From the IMG/VR virus record IMGVR_UViG_3300042901_002277: 64,000 nt of DNA. The stretch is one strand, 5' to 3'. The notes under the pieces were generated by a model that was given only the letters and a program-made list of their open reading frames with translations, was not told the DNA's origin and ran no database searches. Positions 12,087-33,143 of this stretch are shown one piece after another (within the stretch, counting starts at the first letter, position 1; each line of letters starts with the position of its first letter). The stretch is from a virus. Both the position numbers and the translations under genes were made by a program.

Positions 12087-12088
12087 AA

Positions 12089-18000: not shown

Positions 18001-18643
18001 TTTCATCAACAATTATCCCGAACGCGCTGGCGGCTCTCGCTATAAGGGAACGACCTCTTTGCCCAATAGTTTGCCCTGGAAGTCTTTTTTCACCATAGCC
18101 AGAAGAGTTGGCGGTTTTTTCTCCGTTAAGGCTAAATGGGTCAAGGGTCTGTTCCGACTCCTCGATAATCTCGTCAGTCTTTTTATTGACTTTATATTTT
18201 CTTATTCGCAGTTTTGGTTTTGCTGCAAGAACTCTTGCGTATTCGTCAGCCGAAACAGAACGTGGTTCATCAACCCATCCAAAGTTTGGTTTCTTTACGG
18301 CTGTCTTTCGCAATTTAACTGATGGGAACAGGTTGAGGATTTTACCTTCTTCCCACTTTTGGCCCGGAAGATAGTTGTACCCGTTTAGACGCTCAACCAT
18401 TCCGGGCGTACCACCCTTGTTGGTTCTCTTTTTCCCATCAGTGTCTTGATATGTTTCTTTACCAGTCGCGCTGTCGAGCGCCTTGACAGAAAGACCAGCG
18501 TTCAGTGTTGGTCTTGTTATTGACTCAAGTACGGCCTTCTTGAACGCAATTGCTGCGTCGTTTAAGTCTCGCCTTCCAGCGAGCGGCGATACAAGCCTCT
18601 CGGATGTGATTGTACGTGTTTTATAGAACGGCTTACCCGTCAT
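12089..18643 (-). CDS. Giant (~2184 aa) polyvalent-type putative internal head protein: zincin HExxH, 217-aa tandem duplication, degenerate VIP2-like ART, DUF3626-like C-terminus
   Basis: Start moved to ATG 18643 (GAAAGG upstream, just after the 18660 stop); KHEIAH plus LEAAAE; GFVS...VSKGDKG...E-ALILPPG; EAQILGG. Confidence 0.7.
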   Translation of the reverse strand: MTGKPFYKTRTITSERLVSPLAGRRDLNDAAIAFKKAVLESITRPTLNAGLSVKALDSATGKETYQDTDGKKRTNKGGTPGMVERLNGYNYLPGQKWEEGKILNLFPSVKLRKTAVKKPNFGWVDEPRSVSADEYARVLAAKPKLRIRKYKVNKKTDEIIEESEQTLDPFSLNGEKTANSSGYGEKRLPGQTIGQRGRSLIARAASAFGIIVDENGKFRCPPGTPAANQFTDSAGTNCFGISASEIFDFAKRMASGIDVSKETGVKNTTKKLFEFISWLDNGAIPGIGRTVWRDENGKRIKNIKKWREASLNDRNSRVFVDGMIRAQDKLAQQDINVASLMDSLGVIRTDEKRKTNDDVFEVFQKLRDSGAWTIDTSSRLSAEDIDKIVKARLAHVPGFSDLTPERQKSLIAADTERWYTTERALLESALDSFIADPEHMRTIAKINFQVKSPDDPRMDEASTGGYTSPDSKRVMSIIYVDIPEIMNNQEALIPSLAPGERMRIDFVGGKTDSERATALTDFLVTVDGHSKQLAAMVEERAFARHIMKHEIAHTIQMQAFNREAERQIRTNGFITVLNDKGEPVKVENIRDLTSGMVMDLMSKAGDGIDLESLKNALSRTDVVGFLAGEYPKMYFNDKYGAEHWALEAAAELWALRDLGLIYGDDIDAALEWMDDVSDGRYIDIRRRSDAEGLREIEARYYENLGPDPELSGNSVAEVRKRLEIEHKSRLSQIQNWSNDTSTTSDDFVDSLAELQYRKESLNDSYDNLEASGESKDSPQFKEINRKIKETNDYISLIEKNWAERFSSPDSEKRKKDMKSMKESVRQKMFAEGKLRPDEMAARTRQQDINDLEARANRMTVDEFVQKLADIETSLKEPGISEGMKSELLEDKKMIRAIYKSRFSDAGDPKDWSKKKKELDKGVDEILNPPTPQVLAKRRLDIAHEKEMSNIEGWTTSNSITNEKFIESLSGLQYQKEAYNDAFDDMEKNGVSKDSPDFKDLNRKIKENNEKISLIEKRWAERFSSEDRDRRSRDMRALRKSVREKMFSEGTLRPKEMAAKARQEEIKNLRQQTNDMNPEEVVQKLADIEVSLKEPGLSSEAKSVLLEDKKIIRDIYKSKLEGSEDAKVWSKQRRELDTRIDEIVNPPRQQAMKKSKKVKTDKAGASYAKKIQQDEYYAMSEEQARAVERLGDPATTDVGNLLDPDSNVAAVKSINRSYRRAQRSAGNLSPESDTASLEDQIQKVLIPAMEAIDESSIPDDLEIEAEIYFGVTESGFKDISENFDNQGFVSGRIITDESPHKPGEVRDPDGDVVTRAGKEKTRVIVQVSKGDKGLFRTNETELGQEGALILPPGKMKVVDVKPDGTVVVRVQEQDNVVDVLDRLSASIGEEGSGVSRHAKGTKKKIDRVANKYVAQRRENGLSSTPSRPKRDVEIEDKNVEVKREVISAGGSFGEPPSEDYVSESGMTSVGSASDPTAGREVLGVPQTREERKVLRATRANMTFEDTKRVMAGESPRDVMNDMSRESLDPAVADVVARKSIEAILKDVEDAAVEFHAGIDKRPRIRMTESQLTKFADDGEFLPTETDDIILESGAIGRRLERRLNPITRRESPKLSSGARSGSSRKQRVAGIAGSRATGRVLDAVLKRSGADEDTRERVKYGVNMAGALAAGGPAGFATALAVDVARRAGREIAERGLEEAVERGRITQNQMDVAMSAVDRVAPNGLPDPVVDKLADAWTIASDFIDERVVTDENRQRLDEFGNIIRAERGELFENAGQVIGSAREKIGKRFGRGKSKPSETDPFGDFDATPTTPSTSISNEYDDPFAGFDENDYKPVKTEFDDFDGVFSSGRRAGRSSDVFRDEYNSRIGISKSTPNSAKPVSGYVVHRSHNEEKKRRVAASGKGNIGSDAIFEVGDNDIVGDGLTALGEIEVILKPEVSNRTAYGRGEALQSAHRPVAMNSNDPDDIADAIMNADGISSKKQNTEAMLHLLGAKMDKNFSSVNASMDENGRMAPVGAVDSSTRGHEPFEAQILGGFKKSEVEGIHYPYTKVAKVAESEDISDVVNDRSLASKLEKLGFTPEEVAYFYSISGGKPLNTVSMVKLKEYRAAKKIKEKYEGMGIGYVKFAHPQGMNIENPRSYDKTASPTTRVDEILKRNIDAEVEAELKKTLDSIRKSGQLDLMVD
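15206..16490 (-). repeat. Tandem coding duplication, 651-nt (217-aa) period
   Basis: Two aligned copies of LQY-KE...SKDSP-FK--NRKIKE-N--ISLIEK-WAERFSS...VQKLADIE-SLKEPG...LLEDKK-IR-IYKS...DEI-NPP. Confidence 0.93.
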
Positions 18644-18659
18644 GGCGGGCCGCCCTTTC

Positions 18660-20117
18660 TTAGATTGTGTCAGTTTCTGCTTCGAGCAGCTGGAATTCAA
18701 CAAGCGACTTCATGAAATCTCCATCAAGGGTTTCATCTTCTTTCTTGCTCATTCCTTCGCCACCTGCAACCCAGCCTGCTGGGATTAGATTTTCTTTGCC
18801 GAGTTCACGAGCGCGCTTAAGGATGTGTCGCTTTGCGGCTTCCTTGTCTTTTGCTCGACCGAATGCTTGAATCGCATTTCTCAGGTCGGACTCGCTTGCA
18901 ATTGGGTATGAGCCATCTGGAAGCGCGTTTCCTTCCTTGGCCATTGAATTACGCTGCTCTTCGGTGAATGCGCGCTTCAGAGCAATTTCTGCTGCTTCGG
19001 CTTCAATCTCTTCTGCTTCTTCTGGTTCGTACTTGTCGTAACCAAGAACTTCGCCATCAAGAGCAACGAATACATCGTATGACTTTCCGTCAAATCCTTC
19101 GATTTCAACAGCGTATGAGTCGATGCCTTCGAAGTTGTCTGGCTCAACAGCAACCACATGACCGTCAATTGACTTGACTGCGATTTCAGCTGCGTCAGTG
19201 AAGCTAATCAAATTGAGTTCATCAATTGCTGCCTTCTGCTCAAACACGCTTTCATCAAGCTTGTGCCAGCCCATGACTTCTGCCGAAGTTCCATCAATGA
19301 ACACTTCGACTGCCTTGCCATCCTTGCCCTGAACATCAATGACGAACATGTCGGCATCTGGTGAGTAACCTGAATCGATTACTTTTCCATCGAACATTTC
19401 TTCAGCCATTCCCTCAACACTCAAGAGGCCTGGCATTCCTTTTTCTGCGATACATCCACCTGGGCAGTTGTCGCAGACAGAAGTTACGGCTGAGTAGGAC
19501 TTACGCTCAATTGCGCAGATGTAATCATGGTCGCCAAGCTCATCTGACTTCATTCCCATTGTCGCCATGCGGCGCTTGCGGAATTTTTCCATCATGATAT
19601 TTTGCTTCTCAGCTTCCGCCATGTCCTCTTCATCTTCGGAGTCCATGTCGTCTTCCATCGAGCCTTTTTCTTCTTCAGTGAAGTCTTCTTCGTCTGGGTA
19701 TTCAGCTTCAAATTCGTCTTCTTCACCGGCACCTTTTTTCTTGAACTTGTGCATAGCGGTGTTGACTTTTTCTTCATCATCCATCATGTCTTCGTCATCT
19801 TCCATGTCTTCCTCTTCGGACTCCATGTCTTCTTCCGCGCCTTCTTCCATGTCCTCTTCCATGCCCATGGCCTTCATTGGCTTCTTCTTTGGCATCATGC
19901 CGTACATCTTTTGCATGTCCTCTTCGGTCATGTCTTCATCAGCAACATCAAGGTCTGTTGCTGGTACCATCTTCATCTCTACTGGCATTGCACCGCATTT
20001 GCCACACACCTTTGCGCCTGGTGTAAAACCGCATGCAGAAGCCTCAAGCCCCTTGGCGCACTTGAGCACAGCTCCTTCGCTGTCAATACTCACTGTTGCC
20101 TTGTCGTCGTAAGCCAT
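18660..20117 (-). CDS. Acidic scaffold-like head protein with Cys motifs, two PepSY-like domains and a DUF6582-like C-terminus
   Basis: D/E/M-rich tract; CGKCG, CDNCPGGC; AAEIAVKSIDGHVVAVE...YAVEIE...YDVFVALDGEVL; ALPDGSYPI...LRNAIQAFGRA. Confidence 0.65.
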   Translation of the reverse strand: MAYDDKATVSIDSEGAVLKCAKGLEASACGFTPGAKVCGKCGAMPVEMKMVPATDLDVADEDMTEEDMQKMYGMMPKKKPMKAMGMEEDMEEGAEEDMESEEEDMEDDEDMMDDEEKVNTAMHKFKKKGAGEEDEFEAEYPDEEDFTEEEKGSMEDDMDSEDEEDMAEAEKQNIMMEKFRKRRMATMGMKSDELGDHDYICAIERKSYSAVTSVCDNCPGGCIAEKGMPGLLSVEGMAEEMFDGKVIDSGYSPDADMFVIDVQGKDGKAVEVFIDGTSAEVMGWHKLDESVFEQKAAIDELNLISFTDAAEIAVKSIDGHVVAVEPDNFEGIDSYAVEIEGFDGKSYDVFVALDGEVLGYDKYEPEEAEEIEAEAAEIALKRAFTEEQRNSMAKEGNALPDGSYPIASESDLRNAIQAFGRAKDKEAAKRHILKRARELGKENLIPAGWVAGGEGMSKKEDETLDGDFMKSLVEFQLLEAETDTI

Positions 20118-20254
20118 AAAATAGAGCTCCTTGCGCCTAATGGTATGCAGAAGGCTAAACAGCCAACTGTTTATTAAATTATTTGTTTGTAAAAGTATAA
20201 CCTACCACAGCGCCGCTATGGGAAGTATTGATAAAACGCTTTTCTAATTATCTG

Positions 20255-23200
20255 TTAACGTCTACTTTTCGAGTTGTCGTGAAGTCGGAGAAGACTTGTC
20301 CATTGAGTTGGAGACAGGAACCCTTGTGCCTTGAATTGCGAAACAAGGCTTTGAGCGAAATTGCTCCACGTGGCATTTTCTGCCCAGCCCATTATTTCAT
20401 TTTGCATTCTTGGGGTTATGTTCTCTGGGGCTCCGTTGTTCTTGCGTCCAGATGCAAGCTTTTCAACTGCTTCCTGTCCGGTGTTGGATATTCTGCGAGC
20501 AGCTCTTCTTCCGCTACTCAACGAACCACCACTCTTAATTGACTCAACCGTCTCGTCGGTGTCGAACATTGTGTTAAGTCTGTCAACTATTACCTGAACT
20601 TCGTCATCGGAATAACGAAGTGCTTTTCCAGTGTTTTTACTGAATTTTCCTTCTTTTCCTTCTTCGAAAGCCTTGAGTCTTGTTTGGACCTTGGTTGCTC
20701 CAATCACTTCGTCAAGTTCTCTACCTTTTACTCTTTTGCCTCTTCTGGCAAGAGTGTCGGTGATGTTTTTCCAAAGGTCGAATTGTCTAATTGAGTTGTC
20801 AAACTTAACTCCCTCTTCACCGAATACGTCTCCAGCGCTTGGGATTATGCCCTTGTCGACAAGTTGCTCAATAATGGATGTCGGAACTCCTTCTTTTTTC
20901 CATTTTTTAAGCTGTATTGCAGTTGGCTTAATCTCTTCACCGTCAACCTCAAACGTAATGGCTTCTGCTAGGTCGTCATCAGACTCAACTCCGAATGATT
21001 CTGCAAGGGCAGAAACGGGGAAGGCGCTCTTTGAAACTTCTCTAGCAACAAACTCCTCAGGAAGCTCGAAATCTATTGGTGCGTAGAGGGGGTACATCGC
21101 TATACCCTCTTCTTTGTAGTCCTCGTATTCTGCTCTGCTTAGCTGATTACCTCTACGACGGTCATACCAGTAAGGAGCTGCATCGAAGCCCCAAACTGCC
21201 TCAAGCGTCTCGTATGACCTGCCTGGGTCTCTGCCGTTAAAGAATGCCCTGTCGATAAATTCGTAAGCGTCTATTTCAGAAATACCCGCCCCATCTTGGA
21301 ACATCTTTTCAAGTTCTATCTCGCTTACGCCAAGGAATTTTGCACTCTGCTCCCTGTCTAGTGGGTTCCCGTCTTCGTCCCTAAGAATTTGCTCGAGTTT
21401 TTTAGCGTCAAGCATCCACTTACCATCTGGTGACCTGTCGTTATTCCCTGACATTTTGCCAAATTTTATTTTGACTTTGTCCTGAAGGTAATTGCCGACA
21501 CTGTTTCTGGTCTCGCTGTTAGGGAATCTGAGTCTTCCAGAGCTGAGTCGGTCGGTACCAAATTCATCTTTGCTTGGTCCTGGTCGCCTCTTGCTTGGGA
21601 TAGTTGCTGCTCTTTGTCTTACTCCGTCAGCGAATGCCTGTCTATCGGCATCCGCCATTGGGCGACGCTTTGAGCCTTGAGTTCTATTTCTTCTACCAGA
21701 AGAAAACTCTGCTGCATCGCCTTCAACCATATCGAAGTTAGAGAGGTTCCTAGGAGAAAAAACATCATCAGGAGTTCCCGTAATATCTTCTCTGTCTATG
21801 GCCACTCCATTGTCTTCAAAGAACGTCTGAGTGCTAAAAAGGTCGCTCAGCTCGTCTTCAAGACCATTTACGTTCTTGACGTACAAATCTCCAAGCTTTG
21901 ATGCAAACTCTTGTGGAGTCAAATCTCCACGGTCTGCAGAATCGATGAGTTCTTTTATTTCGGCAATTTGCTCTTCGTGGGTAACCGTGGAGAATCTGTC
22001 TTCTACGTCGTCAATTTCCTCGAGTGCATAGATAATGGAGTCTGCGTCAGATTTGATTAGGTCAATAGCTCTTTCGTTGTCCCCATCGGCAAGGTCTATA
22101 TTTCTCTCCATCGCTGATTCGAAATCAACTGGGCCTGGAATGTCCCTTGCCCCCATGCGAGTTGTGGTTCTGAAGGCATCTTCTAGTTCAGAAATGCTGC
22201 CCTTCATGTCCTCAATCTCGTCATTTAGTCCAGAGAGGGTCTCTTCTGTACGTCTCAATTCATCGTGAATTCTGTCTATCGCATCGTCGATGTCCACCAG
22301 CAAATCCATCTCATCTTCTGCAACTGGCGCATATTTGTCAATTTCGAAAATAGACGAACCGGCAGGCATTCTCTTGCCATCAAGCAAGGAACGGAGCAAA
22401 TCATTTCTTAGAGCGACAAGTCGGTCGAGAGATTGAACTGCTTCGGCGTGGTCTTCAAGAGGGATTGTTACGCGGAACTCACCTTTTTTCTCTGTTCCAA
22501 GCCTTCCGCCAAAAGCATTTTGTACAACCATGCTCTCGTATCGAGCGTCGTCCTCAATCTCCGCACGCACTTCATCAAGTGGTCTGATTCTCCCAGAACT
22601 CAATCTGCCTGAAGTGACATTTCTTGTTCTTTGCGCCCTGGCACCAGGGGTGCCACGTGGAACACCTGGTTGTGTCGGGTTGTATGGAGCATCCGCGCCG
22701 TCAACTAGTCCCTCAATCTTGTGGAGACTGTAACTTCTGTACTGACCTTGGTCATCGTCAAGACCTACGACATATATGCCGCCGCCTTTTTTGGCCATCA
22801 TTCCAGTTGGGTAGATGGTTCTTGGCTTTCCGCCGTACGTGAATGAAACGCTTTCACCGTTCCTGCGTATCGAGTCAAAATCGTACTTATCAGCAGGCAC
22901 AGGGGCTAATCGAGAAGCGATGTATCTTGAGTTTGAACCAGCTTCATCCGTTCTCTTAAGAGCATTCGATACTGTGCCAATTGTTTCTACTGGAGTTTCG
23001 TCGTATCTTGAGCGAACGCCAGATGAAAGCCTGCCATTTTCTCTTGCAAGCTCCATCCGAATATCGCTGGCCTCATCTGCCCAGTCTTCTGCGCTCCATT
23101 CAAGACGTGATTCATCAATCTCCGCAATCATCCGCGTGTATTGCTGCCTGTCGTAACGTTCGTTCACAATCCTTATGGAATCTTGATACTCTGCGTCTCT

Positions 23201-26200
23201 GCGGGCTGTTTCTTCGTCAAGCATGCTTGATATTTTTTCAAAATCTGTTTCTTCTTTGAATTTTTTAGCCCATGCTTTACGGGTGTCTTCGTAATCGCTA
23301 ATCCACCTAGCCACATCTTCAGGACTGTCGTATTCATCGCTGACGACTCCAGCCCAATCACGGTCGGAGTCCTCATTGAATTCAAGTCGCAGCAGTGCTG
23401 CACTCCAAAGGCCGTTTTCGCCCTCGGTGATGTCCCATTCATTGTCTGAAGCCCTTGATTCTTCAAAATCTGCACGGCCAACAAAGTAGTGCCTGTCGTT
23501 AATGCGACCACCTCTTGCCATATCAAATCTGGTTAAGAGTTCATCTCCGAATGCGCCCATTTCGTCAGCAAGGGTTCTTATTGTTCCTTCTGGATTCCTT
23601 ACGTATTTTTCACGTTTGCCAGAAGAAAGTGAAGGACCGATGTCGCCATATCCTCCGTCGTTGTTGCCTGGGAGTACTCCTGACTCTGCAACTTTTTTGC
23701 CGAGCTTTGCGCTCATTGATGGAGACTTTGATATTGCGTAATCATGTGCTTTTTGAGCTTCGCCAAAAGCCTTCTTCATTGCATCAGGGTCAGACTTAAG
23801 TTTCTTCAACCAGCCAGCAAGATACTGCGCATGGTCCTCTCTTGGCTCTGGGGTTAGACCATGTGCAGCCATAAAGAATGCAGAAGCTATTTCTGCAACA
23901 AGTTCTTCTTGTGCATACTCAGGGCTTCCAAACTCTCCAAGATGGTCTCTGTTCAGACGTGATGGATGTCCTGTCCAGTGCATTAACTCGTGAGCGAATA
24001 CCGCGTAATAACCTTCTCTGCTCTTGAATGCAGAGAATGGAGGAAGATGTATTTCGTCTGTTGATGGTCTATAGAATGCTCTATCTCCACCAGTATTAAC
24101 AACCGCACCAACTTCTGACAAGGCTTGTTCAAGTTCGGCTACGCGCTCTTCTTCTGGGAGTTCTGGGACTCTGAACTTCTCCTTATCGATTCCGTCAATT
24201 TGGTCGATGTTGAAAACATGTCCAGTCTTAAAGAACACTCCTCCGGACCCGCGAATTTCATTTCCGTCTGCATCCTTCTTTTTAGGAATAATTGTAGGAA
24301 TCAATATCAAGGTGCCTTTTTCGCCCTTGCGTACTGTTCCGCCCTCTTTTTTCCACTGATTAAACCCAGCCCATAGAGGCATGTCGTAACCCATTGCGTC
24401 CTGCTTGAACATCAGCATTACGCTGTTGATTCCGCTGTAAGGACGGTTGTTGTTCGTTACGTTCTTCGGCAGAGATGTCTTGTGCCAAGGGAACTCCCAC
24501 TTGCCATCACCTGATTCTTGAATCTTTTCTATTTGCTCTATCAGGTTTGATTGAACGCTTCTGTAAACCTCGTCCAACTTTCCTGATGAAAGCCTTTGAC
24601 CAACTTCAAGGTCATCAAGAGGACTTACGTAATCTTTTCTTCCAGAAGAGAATGCTCCATCGCGGTCAAGCCAGCGTTTTGCTTCTTTATCCATGCTGCG
24701 CATGAGTTGCATATGCTTTTGCTCGCGAGTTCTAATATCTTCTCTGCTCATTCCAAGGGCTTCTGCCGTTGCGGCAAGAGACTCCCCGCCCATGCGGCGA
24801 AGATAAATTGATTCATTCAGAGCAAGCTCTGCTGCTTCTTCTGCAGCCATGCGTGCCTGGTCTTCACGATAAGCCTCAATGTCATCAAAGTCTGGAGTTT
24901 GCAATGTTCCGCGCTCGCGGGCCATATGGCGCATTTCTGCTTGTCTAACTTCCTCGCGCTTCATACCAAGAGCTTTTGCTGTTTCTGCAAGAGACTCTCC
25001 AGCCATGCGGCGTTCAAATACTTCTCTGTCAGAGATTCGCGATTCCTGTTCTTCGCTTATTCTTCCTGAAGAAAGGTTTCTGTCTTGACGGTTGTCGTAG
25101 AGCCTTTCCAGATAATCCTGGTACATCGCCTTTGCGGCTCTGTTGAAGTTGTCGCTGTAGTTATCGCCTTGTTCTCTGTACTCGTCTAGATATTCTTCCT
25201 GCTTCGGTGAATCACTGCTGTAAAGCCAGTGGTCAAGAATTCTTTCTACTTCATCTTCGCTTGAGCCATCTGAGGAGAGGTCTCTCCGCATCTCCGACAT
25301 CATGTCAGCCCATTCTCTGTCGTCCTTGTCGAGCTCGAGCATCATTTCACGGTCCGGGTGAGCTTCTGGCGTGTACTCCAATAGGCTCGACAAATCCACA
25401 TCATGGTCTTCAAGGGTCTGCCAATCTCCATCCCTTGCTGCGTCTACGAGGAAGCTGGCATAATTGTCTCTAATTGCATCAACATTGTCACCACGTTCGT
25501 AGTCACCTGAATCATCAATGAATTTTCTAAAACCATAATCAAAATCTGGGTCTGAATCTGCACCACCAATTACGCGGCCTATTTCATCTGCAAGATTTTT
25601 GGCTGCCTGTTGCTTGTCGATTTCGTCAAGTTCGTCAAATTTGCGCATCCCTGAAGAGAAGCGTGAAGTCAGCCCACTGTCGCTGAGTTTTTGTTTAAAT
25701 GCTTCTTGGTGCTCTGCGCTTCCGTATTCAGCTCCGGCTGGTTTGTAGTTCTCCGCTACGTATTGCAGCTTGTCAATTGGGGCTGCTTCTTCGTAGATAC
25801 TCTCGAAGTACTCTTGGTCGGATGCATCACTGCGTCGTTCTGGTTTGGCGTAGTCAATTAGCTCTTGTTCGGTTGTTGGACCATAAACTGATTCATATTT
25901 TTCTTCGTCGGTTCCATCTGCGTCTACGAATTCATTAAACACCCAATCGTCCCAGGACTCACCTTCTGGAAGCATGTCATCAAGAATGTCGATAAATGCC
26001 GCATTTCTGTTGAACATCTCTCTTTCGCGGTCATCCATCGGCACTGGTCGGTCGCTGTCTGTTCGTCCAGAAGAAAGACCTGACAATGAGACTTCAGCAT
26101 CACTGTCGTATTTTTCAATCCAGCCAAGTGAGCCAAGGTCTAGTTCCTCTTCGGCTCGAGTTACAGCGACATAAGACAGCCTGAGTTCTTGCTCATCAGG

Positions 26201-29200
26201 GAATACAACGTTGCCCAAATCGTCTTTTTTCGGTCCTCTAAAGTCAGACCAAATCAACACCCTTGGCGACTCTAGGCCCTTAGATGTATGTGCAGTCTGT
26301 ATGTGCACGTACTCATCTCTGTTTTTAGGCAATTTAGCCTTATCCGTGATAACTCTGTCCAAGGCGTCGCGAAGTTCTTCAAACGAATACTTGTCAAGTA
26401 TCTTTCCAAGCATGTTCAGTCGATTGTTATCTTTTTTCTCAATCGCTTTATTGAATTCATCTAGGGTTGTTATACCGTCTAGGTCTTGGCTCTCCTTCGG
26501 CTTGCCAAAATTTTGCTTGCCATCAACATCCGTGAAGTAACCCGTTCCAGTTGCTGAAGTTGTCATGTACTCAATGTTGTCAATGAACGCACTAAGGTCG
26601 TCTTTGAAGTTTTTGCTGCCATAGACAGTTCTACCTTTTTCAAAGCTATCCAGCGTTGCTGCTATTCCTCCGCCGTTAGACCTTGTCAAAATCATTGTTG
26701 GATTACTGATTGAGCCAACTCTTCCATCTACAGGTCGTCCGGACTTGTCTGTTTTTCTACCGTTCATTCGCTCGGTTCTTCCGAGCAAATTCAAGAACCT
26801 ATTTCCCCTATCGGCTATTTCTTTTCCAAATCTGAAGGAGTCGGTAATTGGCATGTCGTATTTTGCATATGCATCAGCAAGGGTTTTCCCGTCAGCCCCA
26901 CGCCACGCGTTAATAGCCTGGTTCGTATCTCCGATGTAAATTCGCTGAATACCATTTGAGTTACGCAATATTCCGGCAAAAACAGGATTCATATCCTGGG
27001 CCTCGTCGACCATTGCCACGTTTACTCCCTCGGAGTCACCAATGTCAGGATTCGTTAAAGCCCACATCTTTGTTACATGCATGTTCGTCATCGGAAGCAT
27101 GCCCTTACCCGAGTCGCTGCCTTTTGGAGCAACTCGCGGAGTATTCATGTCTTCCCACATCTTTTTAGCAAATGGGAGAAGTTCTGCGATAATTTCAGGA
27201 TTTTCTACGGCCATTTTGCCGTTGTACTTTCCCGCGAAGTGCTGTGAGCCAATTTCTGTATCACCACTAATTGCAAAGGCATCTACAGCTTTTGCGACTC
27301 TCTTGTACACATCTACTGCTGTTAATTCTTTACCTTCGTCAACAGTCCCTCTTGTGCCCAGGTAGGTTGCTCTGTCTACGAATCTCATTATTGGTTTTAT
27401 ATATGCGCTGTCTTTGGAGAAACTCTTTGCCGTCATTTCCGGATTGATTGTACGCATTGCGTTGTATGAAACGCCGTCCATCGTCATTACCTTGACATTG
27501 TCCGGCATCCCTCTCTTGCCAGCATCGTCTTTTGCATTTGCGTTGAAGACCAAATACAGAGCTCTAGCTGAAGGTTCTGTATCTTTGAGTCGTTCTGCAA
27601 AATTTATTACCGTAGTAGTTTTTCCGGTTGCTGCAAGAGCTGAAATCTTTACATCATCTCCAGTCATCATTGCGTCTATTGCATTCGACTGCTCCGGAGT
27701 TGGCTTTCTGCCACCAGGTGCATTTGGGTAGTCGTATTCAGGTACGTCTGCCAGGTCAATAATTTCTCTTCTCTTTCCAGAGAATGGAGCGCTTGGTGAT
27801 TTTGATGTAGAAGTTTTTGGAGTACTATCTGGTTTTGCCCCACCGAACATTCTGTCCAATGTCGACCATTGTTTTTCAGAAAGCTTTCCGTTTCTGCGGT
27901 ACTGACGAGCAACGCTTGCGGCGAAAGTCTCTGTTCCGTCAGGCTTGCGAGCCGAGGCTGATTCAGCAGCTTCTATCAATCTTTTTTGTTTAGCTGAATC
28001 AGGAATCGCACCAGAAGAAAGTTTTCCGTCATCAACAGGCTTGGAACGTTTTTCGTTGACAGAGGCAATTTCTCCCTCCATGTGGAACCGAGCCTGCGCC
28101 CAATCTCCCGCATTAACAAGCCTCTCAAATCTTGCTCGCGACTTATCTGTTGGACCCTCTAAGTCAAGGTTTCTCTCTTCTAGTGCGTTGGCGATAATTT
28201 CGTCAAGTTCACCCATGAGGCCCAGGTATGCGCGTGCCCGACCATTAATCGGGCCATCATTGATTTCGTCTCCGTTGACTCGGGATTTTAACGCGCGAAG
28301 GTCCGCTAGTACCGGCTTCCAAGCGGCAAGTCTCTCTGTCTCACTACCAAATTGATTACCAGAAGAAAGTTTGCCTTCTGAATTAAGCTTGCGAAGTTCC
28401 TGAAGGTCTGGTCCTTTTGCTGCACCAGCACCAGCTTTTTTCTTTTTCTTTTTCTTTTTCTTTAGTGTGTCTGCATCCAAAAGACCAATGTCGTTCAGGT
28501 ATTCGTTGAGGGTGGCGATGTCTTCTTTTGCCCAGTCCTGCGTGTCTGGGTACTTAGACTTGACGTCTGCTCTAAGGGCCGATTCAATTCCGTCCCAGTT
28601 GTCTGAGTCATCCCTGCTGTGCGCATCAAGATAGGCGCTAACCGATTTTGCATAGCTTGAATACCAGTTGCTGTATTCTTGCGAAGCTTTTTGCTTCTCG
28701 TTGAACTTTTCAGGACGCTTTCTTACGGAATCGCCATTCCACATAACACGTGCTTGGTTGACTCCGATTTCGCGACCACGGAGATAGTCAGAACTTAAAT
28801 TGTTATCTGCGTTGTAGCGTGGAACTTCTTCCCAGCCAAGACCCTGCTCATCCCATGCTTTAGCGATTGCTTCGTGGTCTACGCGCTTCTGATTTTCTTC
28901 AGCATTTGGGAATTGCTTTTCCATGTCGGCAGAACGGTCTGCATGGCGACGCTCATTACGCTTGCCAGAAGAGAGTTTTTCTGTATCAGCAAGTTCGGCT
29001 CGCTGACTCATCTGCCTCTTTGATGGCTTCGGTGAATTGATGGAGCCAGGACCAGAAGGCGTTGGGTCGGGTTGTTCCCATGGCGTGCCGTCGCCGACCA
29101 TGCTATTTAGGTTTGCGTCTTCGACTGTTCTTGGGTCCCAGCCTGGAGGCGGATTTATACCGGAACCACGAGAGCGACGACCCCTTTTACCGCCAAGATT

Positions 29201-30946
29201 TGGTCGGTCAATTCCTCGGCTTGCAATCGCACGACCGATACGGCGGCCAAGTGCTTTTTCTTCTATTTGCTCAGAAGCTATTTTTTTTTTTAGAAATTCA
29301 TAAGCAGAAGATGCAGCTCTAGTTATAGCGTCCTTCGACTCTTCGCTGAGCGGTGAGTTAATCACGATTCCGTACTCGTTGACGGTTGTGTCAATTCTGT
29401 GGTAATCAAGAACTGGGTCAATTACCGACTTGAATTCAAAGGCGTCTTCAAGATTTACTGGAATGACGTATGACGAGTCTTGAGCCAAGAATGGGTCGAG
29501 ACCCTTTTCCTCAAGCTCTTGCTCCTCTACGCCCCACTCCTCAAGAGTCTTATAAGAGCGACGCTTTCTACGGCGCTTCTTCACCGTGTTACGCAAAACC
29601 CCAAGAATGAATTCTCCAGGGTACTTCGCTTCGATGTCCTCAACCATCTTGATTTCTTCGTCATCAAGAATGTCGTTGTATTCCTTCTTGCCAAATCCGA
29701 CAACAACTCCATCTGGGATGATTGCAAATCGGCACTTGCCCTCGTCTTCGACTTTAAGGCCAAGAATCTTGCACTTGCCTTCGCCTTGGTAGAGGACGCA
29801 ATTTGAGCACTTTACGCCGATGTCTTTTACTTTGTTCTCGGCAGGCGGGTAATATCCAGCCCAAATTCCATCACCATCTTCGTCAAACTTTCCGTACTTG
29901 CGAGCGATACGAACAAGCGATTCGGCAAGCTCGCTCTCTTCTGCACCAAGCTCTGGCTTTTTGTTCTTGTCAGAACCTTCGTACTCAACAGGCGCCAATG
30001 GAACCATGACCATTCCGCCATTAACTGGCTTCATTGCTACAGGCATTGCCATTGCAGGGTTATTTGTCGACGGCTTATTCGGTTTGCCCATAATCCCAGG
30101 CATTGGCGAAGGGCCAGACTGGACTGGCGGTTTTGCCTGTTCTGCGTGAATTAATTCTGGCTTGCCAAACATGTACTCGCTTCCAGTGAAGTGGTAACCA
30201 ATTCTGAATTTTCCTTTTCCTGGCTTCACAAAAACCACAGAGTTCTCAGTCGCTTCAACAACCATGACTGGTCCTGCGGCGCGGCGTGAAAGTTCGGCAA
30301 CCACTCCTGCAAGCTGTGGTCCACTTATTCTTTGTGAAACACCTTCGTCAAACAGTCCGTCTCGTCGTGGCTCTGATGATGGAGCGCTTATTGACATAGG
30401 CATCATCCCATGCATCTTCTCTTCATCGCTCTTTACGGAAATTGTTCCAGTTAGTTGGTTCGCGCCGTGAAGAACAGGGGAAACCTCGTAGAGTTCTACT
30501 TCGTAGAGAACGTTTGCTTGCAGGTTGTCGTCGTACTGCGCTCTAAGAGTCTTGTAGCCGATTGACCACTCTTGCTCTTCGCCAAAGAAAGCCACGTTCG
30601 CAAATGCTTCTTTGCCCTTTTCTGACTGCAGGTTGAATTGAACCTTTGCGTACAATCCGCCAATTCCAGCCATTTTCATCTTCATAGGAAGGCGTGGGTC
30701 GGAAGCAGGGACTTCGTATATTTCAAGGACCTTACCAATTGGGTCGTTCCAGTTGTGGCCCCATACAACACGTGGCTTACGACGCTGAAGGCTCTTAGCA
30801 AATGCACCAGTAGCGCAAATGTCACCAACAGAGTCTTTGTTGCCTATTCCGGAAACAAAACATTCAACAATTCCTTCAAGCTCATCTAGCTTGATGAGAC
30901 CATTCGAGGCCTTGTATTGAATGTTTCCGAAGTTAGAGTTTGGCAT
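20255..30946 (-). CDS. 3563-aa polyprotein: HK97-type prohead protease fused to multiple cargo domains
   Basis: Single open frame; RBS AAGGAG; domains listed separately. Confidence 0.9.
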   Translation of the reverse strand: MPNSNFGNIQYKASNGLIKLDELEGIVECFVSGIGNKDSVGDICATGAFAKSLQRRKPRVVWGHNWNDPIGKVLEIYEVPASDPRLPMKMKMAGIGGLYAKVQFNLQSEKGKEAFANVAFFGEEQEWSIGYKTLRAQYDDNLQANVLYEVELYEVSPVLHGANQLTGTISVKSDEEKMHGMMPMSISAPSSEPRRDGLFDEGVSQRISGPQLAGVVAELSRRAAGPVMVVEATENSVVFVKPGKGKFRIGYHFTGSEYMFGKPELIHAEQAKPPVQSGPSPMPGIMGKPNKPSTNNPAMAMPVAMKPVNGGMVMVPLAPVEYEGSDKNKKPELGAEESELAESLVRIARKYGKFDEDGDGIWAGYYPPAENKVKDIGVKCSNCVLYQGEGKCKILGLKVEDEGKCRFAIIPDGVVVGFGKKEYNDILDDEEIKMVEDIEAKYPGEFILGVLRNTVKKRRRKRRSYKTLEEWGVEEQELEEKGLDPFLAQDSSYVIPVNLEDAFEFKSVIDPVLDYHRIDTTVNEYGIVINSPLSEESKDAITRAASSAYEFLKKKIASEQIEEKALGRRIGRAIASRGIDRPNLGGKRGRRSRGSGINPPPGWDPRTVEDANLNSMVGDGTPWEQPDPTPSGPGSINSPKPSKRQMSQRAELADTEKLSSGKRNERRHADRSADMEKQFPNAEENQKRVDHEAIAKAWDEQGLGWEEVPRYNADNNLSSDYLRGREIGVNQARVMWNGDSVRKRPEKFNEKQKASQEYSNWYSSYAKSVSAYLDAHSRDDSDNWDGIESALRADVKSKYPDTQDWAKEDIATLNEYLNDIGLLDADTLKKKKKKKKKAGAGAAKGPDLQELRKLNSEGKLSSGNQFGSETERLAAWKPVLADLRALKSRVNGDEINDGPINGRARAYLGLMGELDEIIANALEERNLDLEGPTDKSRARFERLVNAGDWAQARFHMEGEIASVNEKRSKPVDDGKLSSGAIPDSAKQKRLIEAAESASARKPDGTETFAASVARQYRRNGKLSEKQWSTLDRMFGGAKPDSTPKTSTSKSPSAPFSGKRREIIDLADVPEYDYPNAPGGRKPTPEQSNAIDAMMTGDDVKISALAATGKTTTVINFAERLKDTEPSARALYLVFNANAKDDAGKRGMPDNVKVMTMDGVSYNAMRTINPEMTAKSFSKDSAYIKPIMRFVDRATYLGTRGTVDEGKELTAVDVYKRVAKAVDAFAISGDTEIGSQHFAGKYNGKMAVENPEIIAELLPFAKKMWEDMNTPRVAPKGSDSGKGMLPMTNMHVTKMWALTNPDIGDSEGVNVAMVDEAQDMNPVFAGILRNSNGIQRIYIGDTNQAINAWRGADGKTLADAYAKYDMPITDSFRFGKEIADRGNRFLNLLGRTERMNGRKTDKSGRPVDGRVGSISNPTMILTRSNGGGIAATLDSFEKGRTVYGSKNFKDDLSAFIDNIEYMTTSATGTGYFTDVDGKQNFGKPKESQDLDGITTLDEFNKAIEKKDNNRLNMLGKILDKYSFEELRDALDRVITDKAKLPKNRDEYVHIQTAHTSKGLESPRVLIWSDFRGPKKDDLGNVVFPDEQELRLSYVAVTRAEEELDLGSLGWIEKYDSDAEVSLSGLSSGRTDSDRPVPMDDREREMFNRNAAFIDILDDMLPEGESWDDWVFNEFVDADGTDEEKYESVYGPTTEQELIDYAKPERRSDASDQEYFESIYEEAAPIDKLQYVAENYKPAGAEYGSAEHQEAFKQKLSDSGLTSRFSSGMRKFDELDEIDKQQAAKNLADEIGRVIGGADSDPDFDYGFRKFIDDSGDYERGDNVDAIRDNYASFLVDAARDGDWQTLEDHDVDLSSLLEYTPEAHPDREMMLELDKDDREWADMMSEMRRDLSSDGSSEDEVERILDHWLYSSDSPKQEEYLDEYREQGDNYSDNFNRAAKAMYQDYLERLYDNRQDRNLSSGRISEEQESRISDREVFERRMAGESLAETAKALGMKREEVRQAEMRHMARERGTLQTPDFDDIEAYREDQARMAAEEAAELALNESIYLRRMGGESLAATAEALGMSREDIRTREQKHMQLMRSMDKEAKRWLDRDGAFSSGRKDYVSPLDDLEVGQRLSSGKLDEVYRSVQSNLIEQIEKIQESGDGKWEFPWHKTSLPKNVTNNNRPYSGINSVMLMFKQDAMGYDMPLWAGFNQWKKEGGTVRKGEKGTLILIPTIIPKKKDADGNEIRGSGGVFFKTGHVFNIDQIDGIDKEKFRVPELPEEERVAELEQALSEVGAVVNTGGDRAFYRPSTDEIHLPPFSAFKSREGYYAVFAHELMHWTGHPSRLNRDHLGEFGSPEYAQEELVAEIASAFFMAAHGLTPEPREDHAQYLAGWLKKLKSDPDAMKKAFGEAQKAHDYAISKSPSMSAKLGKKVAESGVLPGNNDGGYGDIGPSLSSGKREKYVRNPEGTIRTLADEMGAFGDELLTRFDMARGGRINDRHYFVGRADFEESRASDNEWDITEGENGLWSAALLRLEFNEDSDRDWAGVVSDEYDSPEDVARWISDYEDTRKAWAKKFKEETDFEKISSMLDEETARRDAEYQDSIRIVNERYDRQQYTRMIAEIDESRLEWSAEDWADEASDIRMELARENGRLSSGVRSRYDETPVETIGTVSNALKRTDEAGSNSRYIASRLAPVPADKYDFDSIRRNGESVSFTYGGKPRTIYPTGMMAKKGGGIYVVGLDDDQGQYRSYSLHKIEGLVDGADAPYNPTQPGVPRGTPGARAQRTRNVTSGRLSSGRIRPLDEVRAEIEDDARYESMVVQNAFGGRLGTEKKGEFRVTIPLEDHAEAVQSLDRLVALRNDLLRSLLDGKRMPAGSSIFEIDKYAPVAEDEMDLLVDIDDAIDRIHDELRRTEETLSGLNDEIEDMKGSISELEDAFRTTTRMGARDIPGPVDFESAMERNIDLADGDNERAIDLIKSDADSIIYALEEIDDVEDRFSTVTHEEQIAEIKELIDSADRGDLTPQEFASKLGDLYVKNVNGLEDELSDLFSTQTFFEDNGVAIDREDITGTPDDVFSPRNLSNFDMVEGDAAEFSSGRRNRTQGSKRRPMADADRQAFADGVRQRAATIPSKRRPGPSKDEFGTDRLSSGRLRFPNSETRNSVGNYLQDKVKIKFGKMSGNNDRSPDGKWMLDAKKLEQILRDEDGNPLDREQSAKFLGVSEIELEKMFQDGAGISEIDAYEFIDRAFFNGRDPGRSYETLEAVWGFDAAPYWYDRRRGNQLSRAEYEDYKEEGIAMYPLYAPIDFELPEEFVAREVSKSAFPVSALAESFGVESDDDLAEAITFEVDGEEIKPTAIQLKKWKKEGVPTSIIEQLVDKGIIPSAGDVFGEEGVKFDNSIRQFDLWKNITDTLARRGKRVKGRELDEVIGATKVQTRLKAFEEGKEGKFSKNTGKALRYSDDEVQVIVDRLNTMFDTDETVESIKSGGSLSSGRRAARRISNTGQEAVEKLASGRKNNGAPENITPRMQNEIMGWAENATWSNFAQSLVSQFKAQGFLSPTQWTSLLRLHDNSKSRR
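22715..22870 (-). other. WYL-like domain within polyprotein
   Basis: VSFTYGGKPRTIYP...GIYVVGLD...YRSYSLHKI matches WYL pattern Y..R.V.P...YL.A.D...R.FRL.RI. Confidence 0.65.
23720..24575 (-). other. ArdC-like module (ssDNA-binding ArdC-N/DUF1738 + zincin metallopeptidase) within polyprotein
   Basis: PW...N...RPYSGIN, FNQW...VRKGEKG, VFNIDQ, AFYRPSTDEIHLP, AHELMHWTGHPSRLNR, YAQEELVAE, HAQYL-GW. Confidence 0.93.
24710..25040 (-). other. Two sigma70 region-4-like HTH domains within polyprotein
   Basis: RRMAGESLAETAKALGMKREEVRQAEMRHM and RRMGGESLAATAEALGMSREDIRTREQKHM. Confidence 0.7.
26130..27705 (-). other. SF1 (UvrD/Rep-like) helicase domain within polyprotein
   Basis: PTPEQ, ATGKTTT, VDEAQD, GDTNQAINAWRGA, SFRFG, TAHTSKGLE, YVAVTRA. 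Confidence 0.92.
30430..30946 (-). other. Prohead (maturation) protease domain, HK97 gp4/S78 type
   Basis: DSVGD...GAF..SL, VVWGHNW-PIG (His), EWSIGY (Ser), LYEVSPVLHGAN. Confidence 0.92.
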
Positions 30947-31065: not shown

Positions 31066-33141
31066 CTAAATGAACTGGCCAAACTTCCACGCTCTTCGCG
31101 ATTCGTCTTCTGCAATTTCAAATCTTTGCTTAGCCATGAGGTTCGCATACATGCTTACAAGCGCACCACGGAAAGATGCTGCTCTCTCCTCTTCGCCCAT
31201 GACAGCCAATGAGTTAAACATCATTGAGGAAACCTGGTTAAAGTTTTCAAGATTCATACTCTTTATGCGCGACATTTGCGAATCAATCTGAGCGTTGAGG
31301 TCCGACTGATTTATACTCTTTTCCGACTTCTGACCGTACCCATCGTTATACATATTGAACGAGTCCTGGATAATTGCAGAAATGACAGGCCTTATATCCT
31401 CGTCCATCTGCTTGTCCCATACCTCGGGGGAGAGTATGGAGTCGATTTCTAGGGTCCCAGCAAACAGTGACTTCTTTGCCTTTGAGCCGCTTGCCTTTTC
31501 AAGAACCACTCTTTGTTGTCTCTCAATAACCCGTTCGATACTTCTGTTGAGTATCTCGTTCCACCTAGTCAGTGACTCTGTGCTTTTTACCTGTAGCTCA
31601 CTCTCGATTGACTTATACATCATCTCTCCAGATGGCACAGATGCCGCTCCAGCCGGTATCGGCTCGGCGGTGGTAGCAACAGCAGCAAGCGCCTCTGGTG
31701 GGATTGTGCTTTGTGCCAGCTGGTCTGGGGCTGGGGTTTCGACTTGAGCCAATGCTCCCTGCATGGTGTTCGGGTCAAGCGGTGGTTGTCCATCCACCCC
31801 AGGAACTGGGGCGTCTGGTGCTGGTGCGCCTGGCATAGGCTCTCCCGGCATTGGCGCTCCCGGCATTGGTGGTCCACCCATTTCTGCCGATGGAGCAGTT
31901 TCCATCTTTTTCTTTGTATTCGCGATTGGAATAAGGTTAGGGTTCATGAGCAGAGAGTCCGCAAGGTCTGCTTCAACTTCTTTTCTTCCAGAACCCATTC
32001 TGTACTCGTTATTGCTGATAAGGCCAGTTTGAAATTCCTGCATCAGGTATCTTTCACGCTCTTGCTTGTAGAGCTGAAGAATTGGAACTTCGCTTGTATC
32101 GAAGTCGATGTAGTACTCATCGTCTAGTTCGTCTAGAGAACGCGCTAGTGGTTCAAGGTGTGGAAGCATGGTTTCCATCCAGAACACGCGGATTTCTTCG
32201 CTTGCGTTACTGAATGTTCTTCCTGCAGCGTTTCCGATTACAGACTCTGGGACGCCGAATGATGCAAGAATTTCTTCTTTTGTAATCTGTCTCATTTGTG
32301 CGTAAGCAACGTCTCTCGGCGAAGCAGATGTGTCTACATAGTCAACACCATCGTCAGCAGAGATAACCGTCGTATGACCCGCTCTTCCGATGTTCCCACG
32401 GAATCTGCTCTTTAATTCTTCCTTGTCATCGTCTTCGATTTCTCCACGCAAAACGAGCAGGCCACCAGGTCTTCCGTCGTTGAGTAGATAGTTTCTGTTG
32501 TATAGCTTTGCAAGATTTTCAATTTCAATTGCAACGCCAGCCGACTCAAGAGGGGTGAGTGACAAATATGGGTCAAGAGGGTGAGGTCTTCTAATCCAGC
32601 AAACATCCTCTGGTTTCATTATGATTTTTTGACCGTAAGGCATTTGCACTTCGTACCCAGACACAAACTTCTTTGCATCTGGGATTGGTGCTGTTGATTG
32701 AGGAGGCAAAAGGTTGAGACCAATTATTCTTCCGTCTCTTCCACGAACCTTTTCAATGAATACACCGCGTGTACCAAGCAAAAGTTGAGCGGACATTCTG
32801 TATCTGAAGATAAAAGAGTTTTCACCAACGTTTGATTTGGTGTTCAGAACTTCAAGCAAAGAGTTGTTTTTTGCTCTATTCCCAACAAGAATTTCTCCAT
32901 CTGGAGAGTTGTCCTTGCGAAGAATAATTGGTAGTCGTGCTTGATTTCCTGCAATCGCATCGATGCATCGTGCAACCCAAGTGACCTTCTGCATTCCTTC
33001 GCGGTATGCACGCTCGACATCCCATGAGTCTCTATACGGTCTTCCTGCATAGCTTGGGTTCTGCGCTATAGGCGCGCCAGGGCCTAGTTCCTTGGATTGT
33101 GCGTTTGAGAGCGACTTATTGCTCGATTGATTCCATGCCAT
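31066..33141 (-). CDS. Portal protein, HK97 family, with C-terminal extension
   Basis: WVARCIDAIA--ARLP, LTPLESA, NDGRPGGLL, EILASFGVPESVIG, TFSNA, GLISNNEYR. Confidence 0.92.
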   Translation of the reverse strand: MAWNQSSNKSLSNAQSKELGPGAPIAQNPSYAGRPYRDSWDVERAYREGMQKVTWVARCIDAIAGNQARLPIILRKDNSPDGEILVGNRAKNNSLLEVLNTKSNVGENSFIFRYRMSAQLLLGTRGVFIEKVRGRDGRIIGLNLLPPQSTAPIPDAKKFVSGYEVQMPYGQKIIMKPEDVCWIRRPHPLDPYLSLTPLESAGVAIEIENLAKLYNRNYLLNDGRPGGLLVLRGEIEDDDKEELKSRFRGNIGRAGHTTVISADDGVDYVDTSASPRDVAYAQMRQITKEEILASFGVPESVIGNAAGRTFSNASEEIRVFWMETMLPHLEPLARSLDELDDEYYIDFDTSEVPILQLYKQERERYLMQEFQTGLISNNEYRMGSGRKEVEADLADSLLMNPNLIPIANTKKKMETAPSAEMGGPPMPGAPMPGEPMPGAPAPDAPVPGVDGQPPLDPNTMQGALAQVETPAPDQLAQSTIPPEALAAVATTAEPIPAGAASVPSGEMMYKSIESELQVKSTESLTRWNEILNRSIERVIERQQRVVLEKASGSKAKKSLFAGTLEIDSILSPEVWDKQMDEDIRPVISAIIQDSFNMYNDGYGQKSEKSINQSDLNAQIDSQMSRIKSMNLENFNQVSSMMFNSLAVMGEEERAASFRGALVSMYANLMAKQRFEIAEDESRRAWKFGQFI

Positions 33142-33143
33142 AT

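Follow-up and report, generated by a model that had tools for sequence, protein, structure and literature searches.

A short peptide motif shared by the giant head-cargo proteins and the tail tape-measure protein of uncultured freshwater phages is a probable cutting site for a second phage protease

A family of uncultured freshwater phages was found to mark the joints of its giant head-cargo proteins, as well as its tail tape-measure protein, with one short peptide tag. This tag is probably a cutting site for a second phage protease rather than for the head protease to which some of the cargo is fused, although no cut has been observed, and the best candidate for this second enzyme is a predicted zincin metallopeptidase encoded in a nearby head-operon polyprotein. 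The analysis started from a 64,000-nucleotide stretch of IMG/VR record IMGVR_UViG_3300042901_002277 (hereafter the window), which belongs to a complete 160-kb actinophage genome. An earlier note made from the sequence alone had reported 14 [LF]SSG motifs in a 3563-aa frame of this window and had proposed that fusion to the protease loads the cargo into the capsid, where cleavage at the motif would release about 15 separate proteins. We confirmed what the note had observed, whereas the mechanism it put forward was supported only in part. The polyprotein is organized as follows.

20255-30946, minus strand: protease-scaffold-cargo polyprotein, one open frame of 3563 aa, with homologues of 1.0-4.7 kaa at the same place after the portal gene
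30431-30910, minus strand: HK97-type S78 prohead protease domain (aa 13-172), His64 at 30755-30757 and Ser128 at 30563-30565, bordered by Lys sites at aa 12 and 172
29255-30430, minus strand: acidic, scaffold-like carrier region (aa 173-564) with Lys sites and no motif; the scaffold role is inferred
29281-29291, minus strand: A11 run just before the cargo, with stops following within 4-7 codons in both shifted frames; candidate slippage site giving a cargo-free short form (function inferred), A10-11 being kept in two sub-lineages of the LSSG clade and absent in other lineages
29252-29257, minus strand: Lys564-Ala565, predicted S78 site that frees the cargo (cleavage inferred)
29069-29254, minus strand: basic Gly/Arg leader plus D-x-D-x-D-G...D-G-T-type tag (aa 565-626), candidate packaging or ejection tag
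28964-28975, minus strand: motif 1, LSSG (aa 658), between the tag and the first module
28358-28369, minus strand: motif 2, LSSG (aa 860), main breakpoint against close relatives
28010-28021, minus strand: motif 3, LSSG (aa 976), start of the helicase module
26135-27709, minus strand: SF1 UvrD-like helicase (aa 1080-1604), found with Pfam and phrog_1967, helicase motifs present
26066-26077, minus strand: motif 4, LSSG (aa 1624), end of the helicase module
25649-25660, minus strand: motif 5, FSSG (aa 1763)
25064-25075, minus strand: motif 6, LSSG (aa 1958)
24692-25033, minus strand: twin sigma-70 region-4-like HTH (Pfam and structure model)
24641-24652, minus strand: motif 7, FSSG (aa 2099), degenerate in relatives that keep motif 8
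24581-24592, minus strand: motif 8, LSSG (aa 2119), directly before ArdC; S-S-G-K columns at least 90% conserved in 14 homologues
23702-24577, minus strand: ArdC-N plus MPTase (HExxH at 23978-23992), a mobile module found with Pfam and by Foldseek (6i89, E 2e-17)
23618-23629, minus strand: motif 9, LSSG (aa 2440)
23018-23029, minus strand: motif 10, LSSG (aa 2640)
22703-22879, minus strand: WYL-like domain (Pfam 22.2 bits over a cut-off of 21.8; weak Foldseek hits to PafBC, DriD and BrxR)
22592-22603, minus strand: motif 11, LSSG (aa 2782)
21695-21706, minus strand: motif 12, FSSG (aa 3081)
21536-21547, minus strand: motif 13, LSSG (aa 3134)
20510-20521, minus strand: motif 14, LSSG (aa 3476)
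20447-20458, minus strand: variant LASG (aa 3497), before the last 63-aa module

The positions given in the note are the exact low ends of these codon blocks, and ten of the 14 motifs are followed by R/K. Enrichment of the motif over the rest of the proteome had been named in advance as a test, and it was clear: 0.17 copies were expected from composition (Poisson P 1e-22), and in 1000 shuffles no 4-mer exceeded 5 copies, against 11 for LSSG. The other ~47,000 aa of the genome hold 6 copies, 3 of which lie in the 2204-aa neighbour and the tape measure. The note would also have been contradicted by motifs lying within folded domains, and none was found inside a Pfam or PHROG domain. In an AlphaFold model of aa 1950-2795, four motifs lie in coil with pLDDT<50 and two (2119 and 2640) at helix ends with pLDDT about 70, the other nine not having been modelled. 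An Atlas search with the module at aa 3138-3475 gave no usable hit. Two of the pieces between motifs are only 16-17 aa, so that there are 13 modules of 49-644 aa rather than 15 proteins. An assembly artefact joining separate genes, the other objection raised beforehand, was rejected because independent IMG/VR contigs carry the same continuous frame, as illustrated by contig L015 with 90% identity over aa 968-3376; sequencing reads were not examined.

Then, homologues were compared for gain and loss of modules, as the note had suggested. With the motif masked, 116 of 199 homology breakpoints between relatives fall within 10 aa of a motif against 20.7 expected; for instance, the 98% identity to the close relative L009 ends at aa 859. 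Modules are gained, lost, reordered and moved as whole units, and 453 modules from 54 polyproteins form 116 clusters that change neighbours and even carrier protein. Such a pattern could also be expected if the motif were a relic of DNA recombination, i.e., a short homology at which cassettes are swapped, or a neutral linker. However, 102 different 12-nt spellings were counted among 136 roughly independent sites, with 326 in-frame against 6 off-frame DNA matches, and both AGY and TCN codons are used, in line with the note's view that the motif is kept at the protein level. Only 4 of 28 Ser codons in the window are AGY and TCT is over-used in the motif (51% against 22-40% in matched contexts), so a weak DNA-level kinship exists too. 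Besides, the motif is present with matching flavour in the tape measure, which is not a cassette array. A DNA repeat as the sole cause is therefore largely refuted and this reading is very unlikely.

Across the family, the motif is a code of the form x-[GRKS]-[LFM]-[ASR]-S-x with lineage flavours, among them LSSG, GFAS, GMASR and GLRS. It marks all head-cargo polyproteins, most of which are not fused to the protease, and the tape-measure protein. The other loci of the window that bear on its use are the following.

12089-18703, minus strand: second cargo polyprotein, 2204 aa, with motifs at 13796-13807 and 13094-13105 and a variant at 17876-17887
16559-17521, minus strand: fixed, predicted zincin metallopeptidase domain of the 2204-aa protein (HExxH at 16985-16999, Glu-bearing helix near 16688-16720), best candidate reader of the motif
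47054-51271, plus strand: tape-measure protein, with motif FSSG at 47159-47170 (aa 36) and a second site near aa 575-620 that is canonical in relatives and degenerate here
6016-7392, minus strand: HK97-fold major capsid protein (phrog_10), with Lys-type sites in its N-terminal domain and no [LF]SSG
31066-33141, minus strand: portal protein (Pfam PF04860), directly upstream of the polyprotein

Two mutually exclusive signatures were observed in 10 genomes. Capsid, scaffold and the protease's own borders carry [EDQ]-x-K/[SAG] (the slash marks the presumed cut), with 103 occurrences against 36 expected in head proteins, 22 against 6.1 in the protease N-parts and 9 against 26.6 in the cargo, which avoids it. 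Instead, the motif was counted 80 times against 5.2 expected in the cargo, 80 against 11.7 in other cargo and 20 against 4.8 in the tape measure, but 1 against 0.8 in the N-parts, 5 against 6.5 in head proteins, 7 against 6.4 in other tail proteins and 25 against 28.5 in the rest, and Lys is not enriched at the x position. A matrix built from the cargo of each genome scored its own tape measure best or second best in 9 of 10 genomes (permutation p 5e-6), and the tape measure was first or tied first among non-cargo proteins in 9 of 10. These p values are optimistic, since the general pattern was written after seeing the lineages and the genomes are related, and the background sets contain some false ORFs because ORFs were called by a simple longest-frame rule. 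A literature search, in which most subscription journals were not covered, found no description of this motif and no earlier note of its sharing with the tape measure or of the second protease.

The S78 domain was identified by Pfam PF04586 (36.6 bits over a cut-off of 21) and phrog_80, whereas TIGR01543 (48.9 bits) was under its cut-off of 59. His64, Ser128, the motifs around them and the C-terminal I-S-V-K are invariant in 17 of 17 sequences. S78 proteases cleave head proteins after Lys. Here the Lys signature is enriched in head proteins and at the domain borders and depleted in the cargo, which does not settle whether this enzyme cuts at Lys, no direct cleavage data being at hand. A Lys followed by a small residue precedes the basic leader in every cargo cassette examined. 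The leader and tag are shared by all cargo cassettes and also occur in the 524-aa ORF 3821-5395 and in unpunctuated marine relatives. In relatives, the same leader-tag-cargo cassette is fused to three other head proteins or stands alone behind a short propeptide. Hence, fusion to the protease, as the note proposed, is not supported as what loads such cargo in general.

The note further assumed that the fused S78 protease itself cuts the motif inside the prohead, which would require a second, relaxed specificity (register x-[LFM]-[ASR]/S, like the herpes assemblin Ala/Ser rule). S78 is intact and fused to the cargo, both signatures can be written hydrophobic-x/Ser, and GLRS lineages have a basic residue at that position. 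However, the two signatures partition between protein classes, with acidic against basic context, the mid-chain tape-measure site is out of reach of a prohead enzyme, and the motifs around the catalytic residues do not vary with flavour. In addition, two marine relatives have an intact S78, Lys sites, the tag and 1.7-2.1 kaa of cargo, but no zincin gene and no motif (2 against 0.7 expected in 6330 aa, none in the tape measure). This reading is unlikely.

The zincin domain belongs to the fixed part of the 2204-aa family, and its HExxH is kept in 21 of 21 homologues at 27-28% mean column identity. A structure model (pTM 0.76) shows the HExxH helix and a downstream Glu helix in a fold that, in VIA comparisons, is that of zinc endopeptidases: the best hit was the lethal-factor protease domain (Z 8.8, rmsd 3.8, 171 aligned, 9% identity), followed by PPEP-2/3 (Z 6.4-6.5), most further rows being zinc peptidases. 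A Z of 8.8 is modest, and Foldseek, PDB sequence and Pfam searches of this domain gave nothing significant. Five cultured actinophages lack both zincin and motif, as do the two marine relatives. This co-absence comes from one lineage (two partial contigs) plus distant phages, where an empty profile search shows little. A distance-matrix test did not favour the zincin either, the partial r with motif flavour being 0.27 for the zincin, 0.37 for S78 and 0.35 for the tape measure, so that the three are not separated. HExxH domains are common cargo modules and the conservation may serve another target.

Other readers of the motif were considered. The ArdC-linked MPTase was rejected because many motif-rich homologues lack it (contigs L036, L046 and, within the part examined, L048). 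The 692-aa conserved protein has no support as a protease, its nearest named Atlas clusters being kinase-fold, and no peptidase family was found among the small head-operon proteins. Sortase, lipobox, prepilin-peptidase and Prp motifs do not fit (wrong length, no Cys, no hydrophobic helix, no NLQxF). The motif might also be cut after L/F/M in the infected cell by a host protease or by the phage's own HslV/proteasome-beta-like Thr protease (116479-117102 of the phage genome, outside the window). The latter has the N-terminal T-T and other family motifs, is present in 4 of 4 near-complete relatives and was not found in the five unpunctuated cultured phages, and L/F/M without I/V fits a chymotrypsin-like pocket. 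However, its gene lies far from the virion operons with no sign of packaging, it would cut cargo from its anchor if present during assembly, and such enzymes are not known to read a five-residue motif; the marine contigs are uninformative as to its absence. We consider this possibility unlikely.

Our preferred, still tentative, explanation is a two-code processing of ejected virion proteins. In this view, the S78 protease cuts after Lys in [EDQ]-x-K/[SAG], maturing the head and freeing each cargo chain from its carrier, here at Lys564, as inferred from HK97-type precedent and from the statistics. The freed chain, led by the basic leader and the Asp/Gly tag, would then be cut at the [LFM]-[ASR]-S motif into its modules (helicase, HTHs, ArdC, WYL and unknown ones) by a second phage protease, most likely the zincin of the 2204-aa protein, which would also cut the tape-measure protein. 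Because the tape measure is inside the tail, this step most likely acts during or after ejection. The analysis itself demonstrates the motif, its place at module junctions, its restriction to cargo and tape measure, its co-variation within genomes, and the conservation and fold of the zincin, while packaging, ejection, cleavage, the enzyme, the scissile bond (before L/F/M if the zincin follows the usual rule) and the timing are inferred; neither cutting of the chain nor zincin activity on the motif was assayed, and their complex was not modelled. Against this explanation, a cut before L/F would create N-degrons. A bolder form is possible, though less likely than not, in which a co-ejected, sequence-specific zincin cuts every ejected protein, head cargo and tape measure alike, at a genome-wide tag that drifts in concert by lineage and makes the cargo genes a plug-and-play cassette array.

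Alternatively, the motif could be a recognition tag that is not cut, i.e., a grip for a chaperone, a loader or a translocation step that threads ejected proteins through the tail or refolds each module, the chain working as beads on a string. All the positional evidence fits binding as well as cutting, and the marked proteins are those expected to be ejected. Besides, uncut delivery of large MPTase-bearing proteins is known, since N4 virion RNA polymerase is packaged uncut and ArdC and TraC1 are transferred full-length despite their MPTase domains (PMC5512222). A conserved head-operon protein with a kinase-like fold and a variable catalytic loop could bind Ser motifs. Against this, the marine relatives carry long cargo and a tape measure without the motif, yet keep the kinase-like protein, leader and tag, and short, linker-located, one-per-junction sites with a redundant copy decaying look like protease sites. 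This alternative is also unlikely, but if the tag is not cut it would be a shared address label for ejected proteins, which is also of interest.

The processing of phage polyvalent proteins by zincins, proposed by Iyer et al. (2017, PMC5512222), has stood untested for want of a site. A defined site, a candidate enzyme, several natural specificity variants and a natural negative lineage are now in hand, so that the question can be tested with short peptides. The motif also gives domain borders for over 100 module families, mostly unannotated, which are candidates for injected host-takeover or anti-defence proteins in a freshwater phage family with many representatives in IMG/VR, and it predicts processing sites in the tape measure.

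[quoted passage not shown] The cultured actinophages Gordonia GMA6, DalanDe and Chidiebere and Brevibacterium Cantare have the closest cultured S78 domains (36-42% identity), repeated E-I-K-S in capsid proteins and large tagged head-operon proteins, but neither [LFM]-[SR]-S punctuation nor another repeated junction word in their large proteins, and no match to the zincin profile. Like the polyvalent proteins of phages and conjugative elements (PMC5512222), the polyprotein joins domains of disparate activity (protease, SF1 helicase, HTHs, ArdC-N, MPTase, WYL), is encoded with portal and terminase upstream and capsid downstream, and varies in architecture among orthologues; delivery into the host with the DNA was not measured. 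Its peptidase is N-terminal, whereas the assemblin-like peptidase is reported there as always C-terminal, a regularity rather than a core criterion. A text search of that paper turned up no linker motif, while here one motif marks all junctions of several proteins and the tape measure, and the candidate protease would act in trans from another protein. In the T4 capsid targeting sequence/gp21 system and in phiKZ gp175 and SPN3US gp245 processing (PMC9026906, PMC5694885), the prohead protease removes, at a short motif and as is inferred here, a propeptide from internal proteins that are later ejected. There, cargo proteins are separate genes and one Glu rule, the L/I-x-E of an S77 protease, serves capsid, scaffold and cargo; here the protease is S78, the junction motif holds no Glu, and of the two signatures the second is absent from capsid and scaffold. 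Finally, HK97 gp4 and T5 pb11 (MEROPS S78) share the domain, the His/Ser pair, the gene position after the portal and Lys-Ser/Ala sites in capsid N-terminal domains, whereas the present protease is fused to 3400 further residues and the [LF]SSG motif is not a Lys site.

The analysed sequence belongs to a virus record of 160,449 bases with a terminal overlap of 127 bases, and is hence probably part of a complete circular genome. Terminase, portal and HK97-type capsid genes were found, together with a tail module whose order and sequence suggest a contractile tail, and two WhiB genes pointed to an actinobacterial host, WhiB being a marker of actinophages (PMC6802176). Terminase and tail genes run opposite to the portal-capsid operon (window 33141-33398), an arrangement kept in all close relatives examined, and three tRNA genes (Arg-TCT, Ser-TGA, Thr-TGT; window 837-1101, + strand) follow the ribonucleotide reductase-like gene. 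Many relatives exist in IMG/VR, some of which, on the contigs L215 to L218, sit in bacterial MAGs labelled Bacteroidia, Phycisphaerae and Gammaproteobacteria, probably as a result of mis-binning. The closest cultured S78 domains are those of Gordonia and Brevibacterium phages, at 36-42% identity.

The observation of the earlier note held, as the polyprotein ORF and its 14 [LF]SSG motifs are as it described. Enrichment of the motif had been proposed beforehand as a test, and only 0.17 occurrences were expected (P about 1e-22). The position of the motifs relative to folded domains had been proposed in the same way, and the domains found by Pfam and PHROGs lie between motifs:
aa 26-176, protease
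aa 1080-1604, helicase
aa 1973-2083, HTH
aa 2124-2415, ArdC-N plus MPTase
aa 2696-2747, WYL

A structure model of aa 1950-2795, which recovered ArdC, placed four motifs in low-confidence coil and two at helix ends. The word is kept as protein, as illustrated by 326 in-frame against 6 off-frame DNA matches and by 102 spellings in 136 sites. Besides, TCT is over-used, which suggests that DNA exchange at the motif helps to spread it.

Homologues in the LSSG clade are 2.5-4.7 kaa long and carry 4-18 motifs. When they were compared for gain and loss of modules, as the earlier note had suggested, with the motif masked, 116 of 199 homology breakpoints were located within 10 residues of a motif against 20.7 expected, with a median distance of 7.5 against 68.5, although these relatives are not independent. 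Cutting 54 polyproteins at the motif resulted in 453 pieces falling into 116 clusters, with a median of 172 aa. The ArdC module has five different left neighbours, and some modules occur in different carrier proteins. Pentapeptide-repeat modules occur as cargo between motifs in the relatives L132, L142 and L215. In the relative L046 (genome G014), at 10001-20498, the protease polyprotein is split: it ends a few residues after a motif and is followed by a 1030-aa ORF with four more motifs and an ArdC module.

The motif is a family-wide code. Other lineages use G-F-A-S, G-M-A-S-R, G-L-R-S, G-F-S-S-S or G-L-A-S-S at the same kind of junction, the consensus being [GRKS]-[LFM]-[ASR]-S-[GSTRN], and these flavours broadly follow the protease tree. 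In ten genomes, the matches were concentrated in the protease fusion, the family of the 2204-aa protein, further giant proteins and the tape-measure protein. Those further proteins are fused to other head proteins or have only a short propeptide, but most show the same cassette start, i.e., a Lys site, a basic Gly/Arg leader and an Asp/Gly tag. Therefore, fusion to the protease is one of several ways of carrying the cassette. This is illustrated by two stand-alone cargo polyproteins of relatives, lying outside the head operon and having only a short propeptide, Lys site, leader and tag:
G003:79459-92211, 4250 aa, 11 motifs
G006:80836-90903, 3355 aa, 5 motifs

Other features of the window were noted:
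3821-5395 (-), 524-aa protein after the capsid gene, with the same Lys site, leader and Asp/Gly tag, followed by low-complexity Arg/Asp repeats and no motif
8980-11058 (-), 692-aa head-operon protein, 43-55% identical across relatives, with a Lys site, an R-C-P tag and a C-terminal kinase-like fold whose catalytic loop varies (probable pseudokinase); fused to the 221-aa neighbour and to cargo in marine relatives
11003-11668 (-), 221-aa protein with a nearly invariant 70-residue Cys/His-rich domain and a weak phrog_6439 match; possible metal-binding head component
12089-13100 (-), C-terminal module of the 2204-aa protein, with Glu-x-Glu and Glu-Ala-Gln-Ile motifs reminiscent of ADP-ribosyltransferase-like domains, and no Pfam hit
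18660-20117 (-), 485-aa acidic scaffold-like protein with PepSY domain(s) and a C-terminal segment also found at the end of Gordonia phage proteases

Then, the distribution of two signatures was compared. The signature [EDQ]-x-K-[SAG] is enriched in head proteins (103 against 36 expected) and in the protease N-part (22 against 6), borders the protease domain, and is depleted in its cargo (9 against 26.6). The junction motif shows the mirror pattern, with 80 matches against 5.2 expected in the cargo, 20 against 4.8 in the tape measure, 5 against 6.5 in head proteins, 7 against 6.4 in other tail proteins and 25 against 28.5 in the rest. Cultured relatives have repeated E-I-K-S in their capsid N-termini, and HK97 and T5 proteases cut after Lys. 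The simplest reading is that S78 handles the Lys sites, including Lys564, and that something else reads the junction motif. A further detail lies just before Lys564, where a run of 10-11 A, with stops in both shifted frames, is kept in two sub-lineages, while another poly-Lys stretch of the same gene avoids A runs. This run, for which slippage was not assayed, may give a cargo-free short form and so set the cargo copy number.

In the tape measure, sites occur near aa 36-60 and in the Gly/Pro linker near aa 575-770. A matrix derived from the cargo of a genome scored its own tape measure first in six genomes, second in three and fifth in one (permutation p 5e-6), and the tape measure was first or tied first among non-cargo proteins in nine of ten. 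The genomes being related, this p value is optimistic, but exact flavours match within clades, such as G-L-S-S-G in genome G014 and S-L-R-S in genome G005. A protein inside the tail tube is not a prohead substrate, so that the reader of the motif probably acts on ejected proteins, a step which is inferred.

As to the identity of this reader, the ArdC-linked MPTase is absent from many punctuated homologues. The best candidate is the zincin of the 2204-aa protein, encoded two genes downstream, which has HExxH at aa 569-573 in its fixed N-terminal part, kept in 21 of 21 homologues although mean column identity is 27-28%. Its model (pLDDT 71, pTM 0.76) aligned best to zinc endopeptidases, namely the lethal-factor protease domain (Z 8.8, 9% identity, a fold likeness only) and the Pro-Pro endopeptidases, while a Foldseek search gave nothing significant. 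PepSY domains regulate metalloproteases in other systems, and the gene of the 485-aa PepSY protein sits between the polyprotein and the zincin gene. Two marine relatives offer a natural control, since on contigs that hold the head and tail operons they keep an intact S78, Lys sites, leader, tag and a cargo of 1.7-2.1 kaa. They have no zincin gene and no HExxH in any long ORF, and no punctuation, with 2 matches against 0.7 expected in 6330 aa and none in the tape measure; however, this is one lineage, and a distance test did not separate zincin from S78. A phage-encoded HslV/proteasome-beta-like Thr protease with intact family motifs, located outside the window (G000:116479-117102, - strand, in the genome of this phage; L172:16482-17102 in a relative) and present in 4/4 near-complete relatives, is a second candidate.

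Taken together, the feature is real and wider than first reported, whereas the interpretation of the earlier note, in which fusion to the protease loads the cargo and cleavage at the motif releases the separate proteins, is only partly supported. The motif and its distribution were observed directly in the sequences, while its cleavage and the enzyme responsible are inferred. Proteolytic cleavage of some kind is considered likely. Attribution to the neighbouring zincin is the preferred reading but a tentative one, cleavage by S78 appears unlikely, and cleavage by another enzyme more unlikely still. An uncut recognition tag, although doubtful, is slightly better placed than S78.

No description of this motif was found in literature searches. 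The protein fulfills the tested core criteria of polyvalent proteins, for which zincin processing was proposed, although no site was found in the text (PMC5512222), and it differs from them in its N-terminal protease and in the shared motif. In its first step, which is inferred, it would work like the cargo processing of T4 or phiKZ (PMC9026906, PMC5694885), but those use one rule for all substrates.
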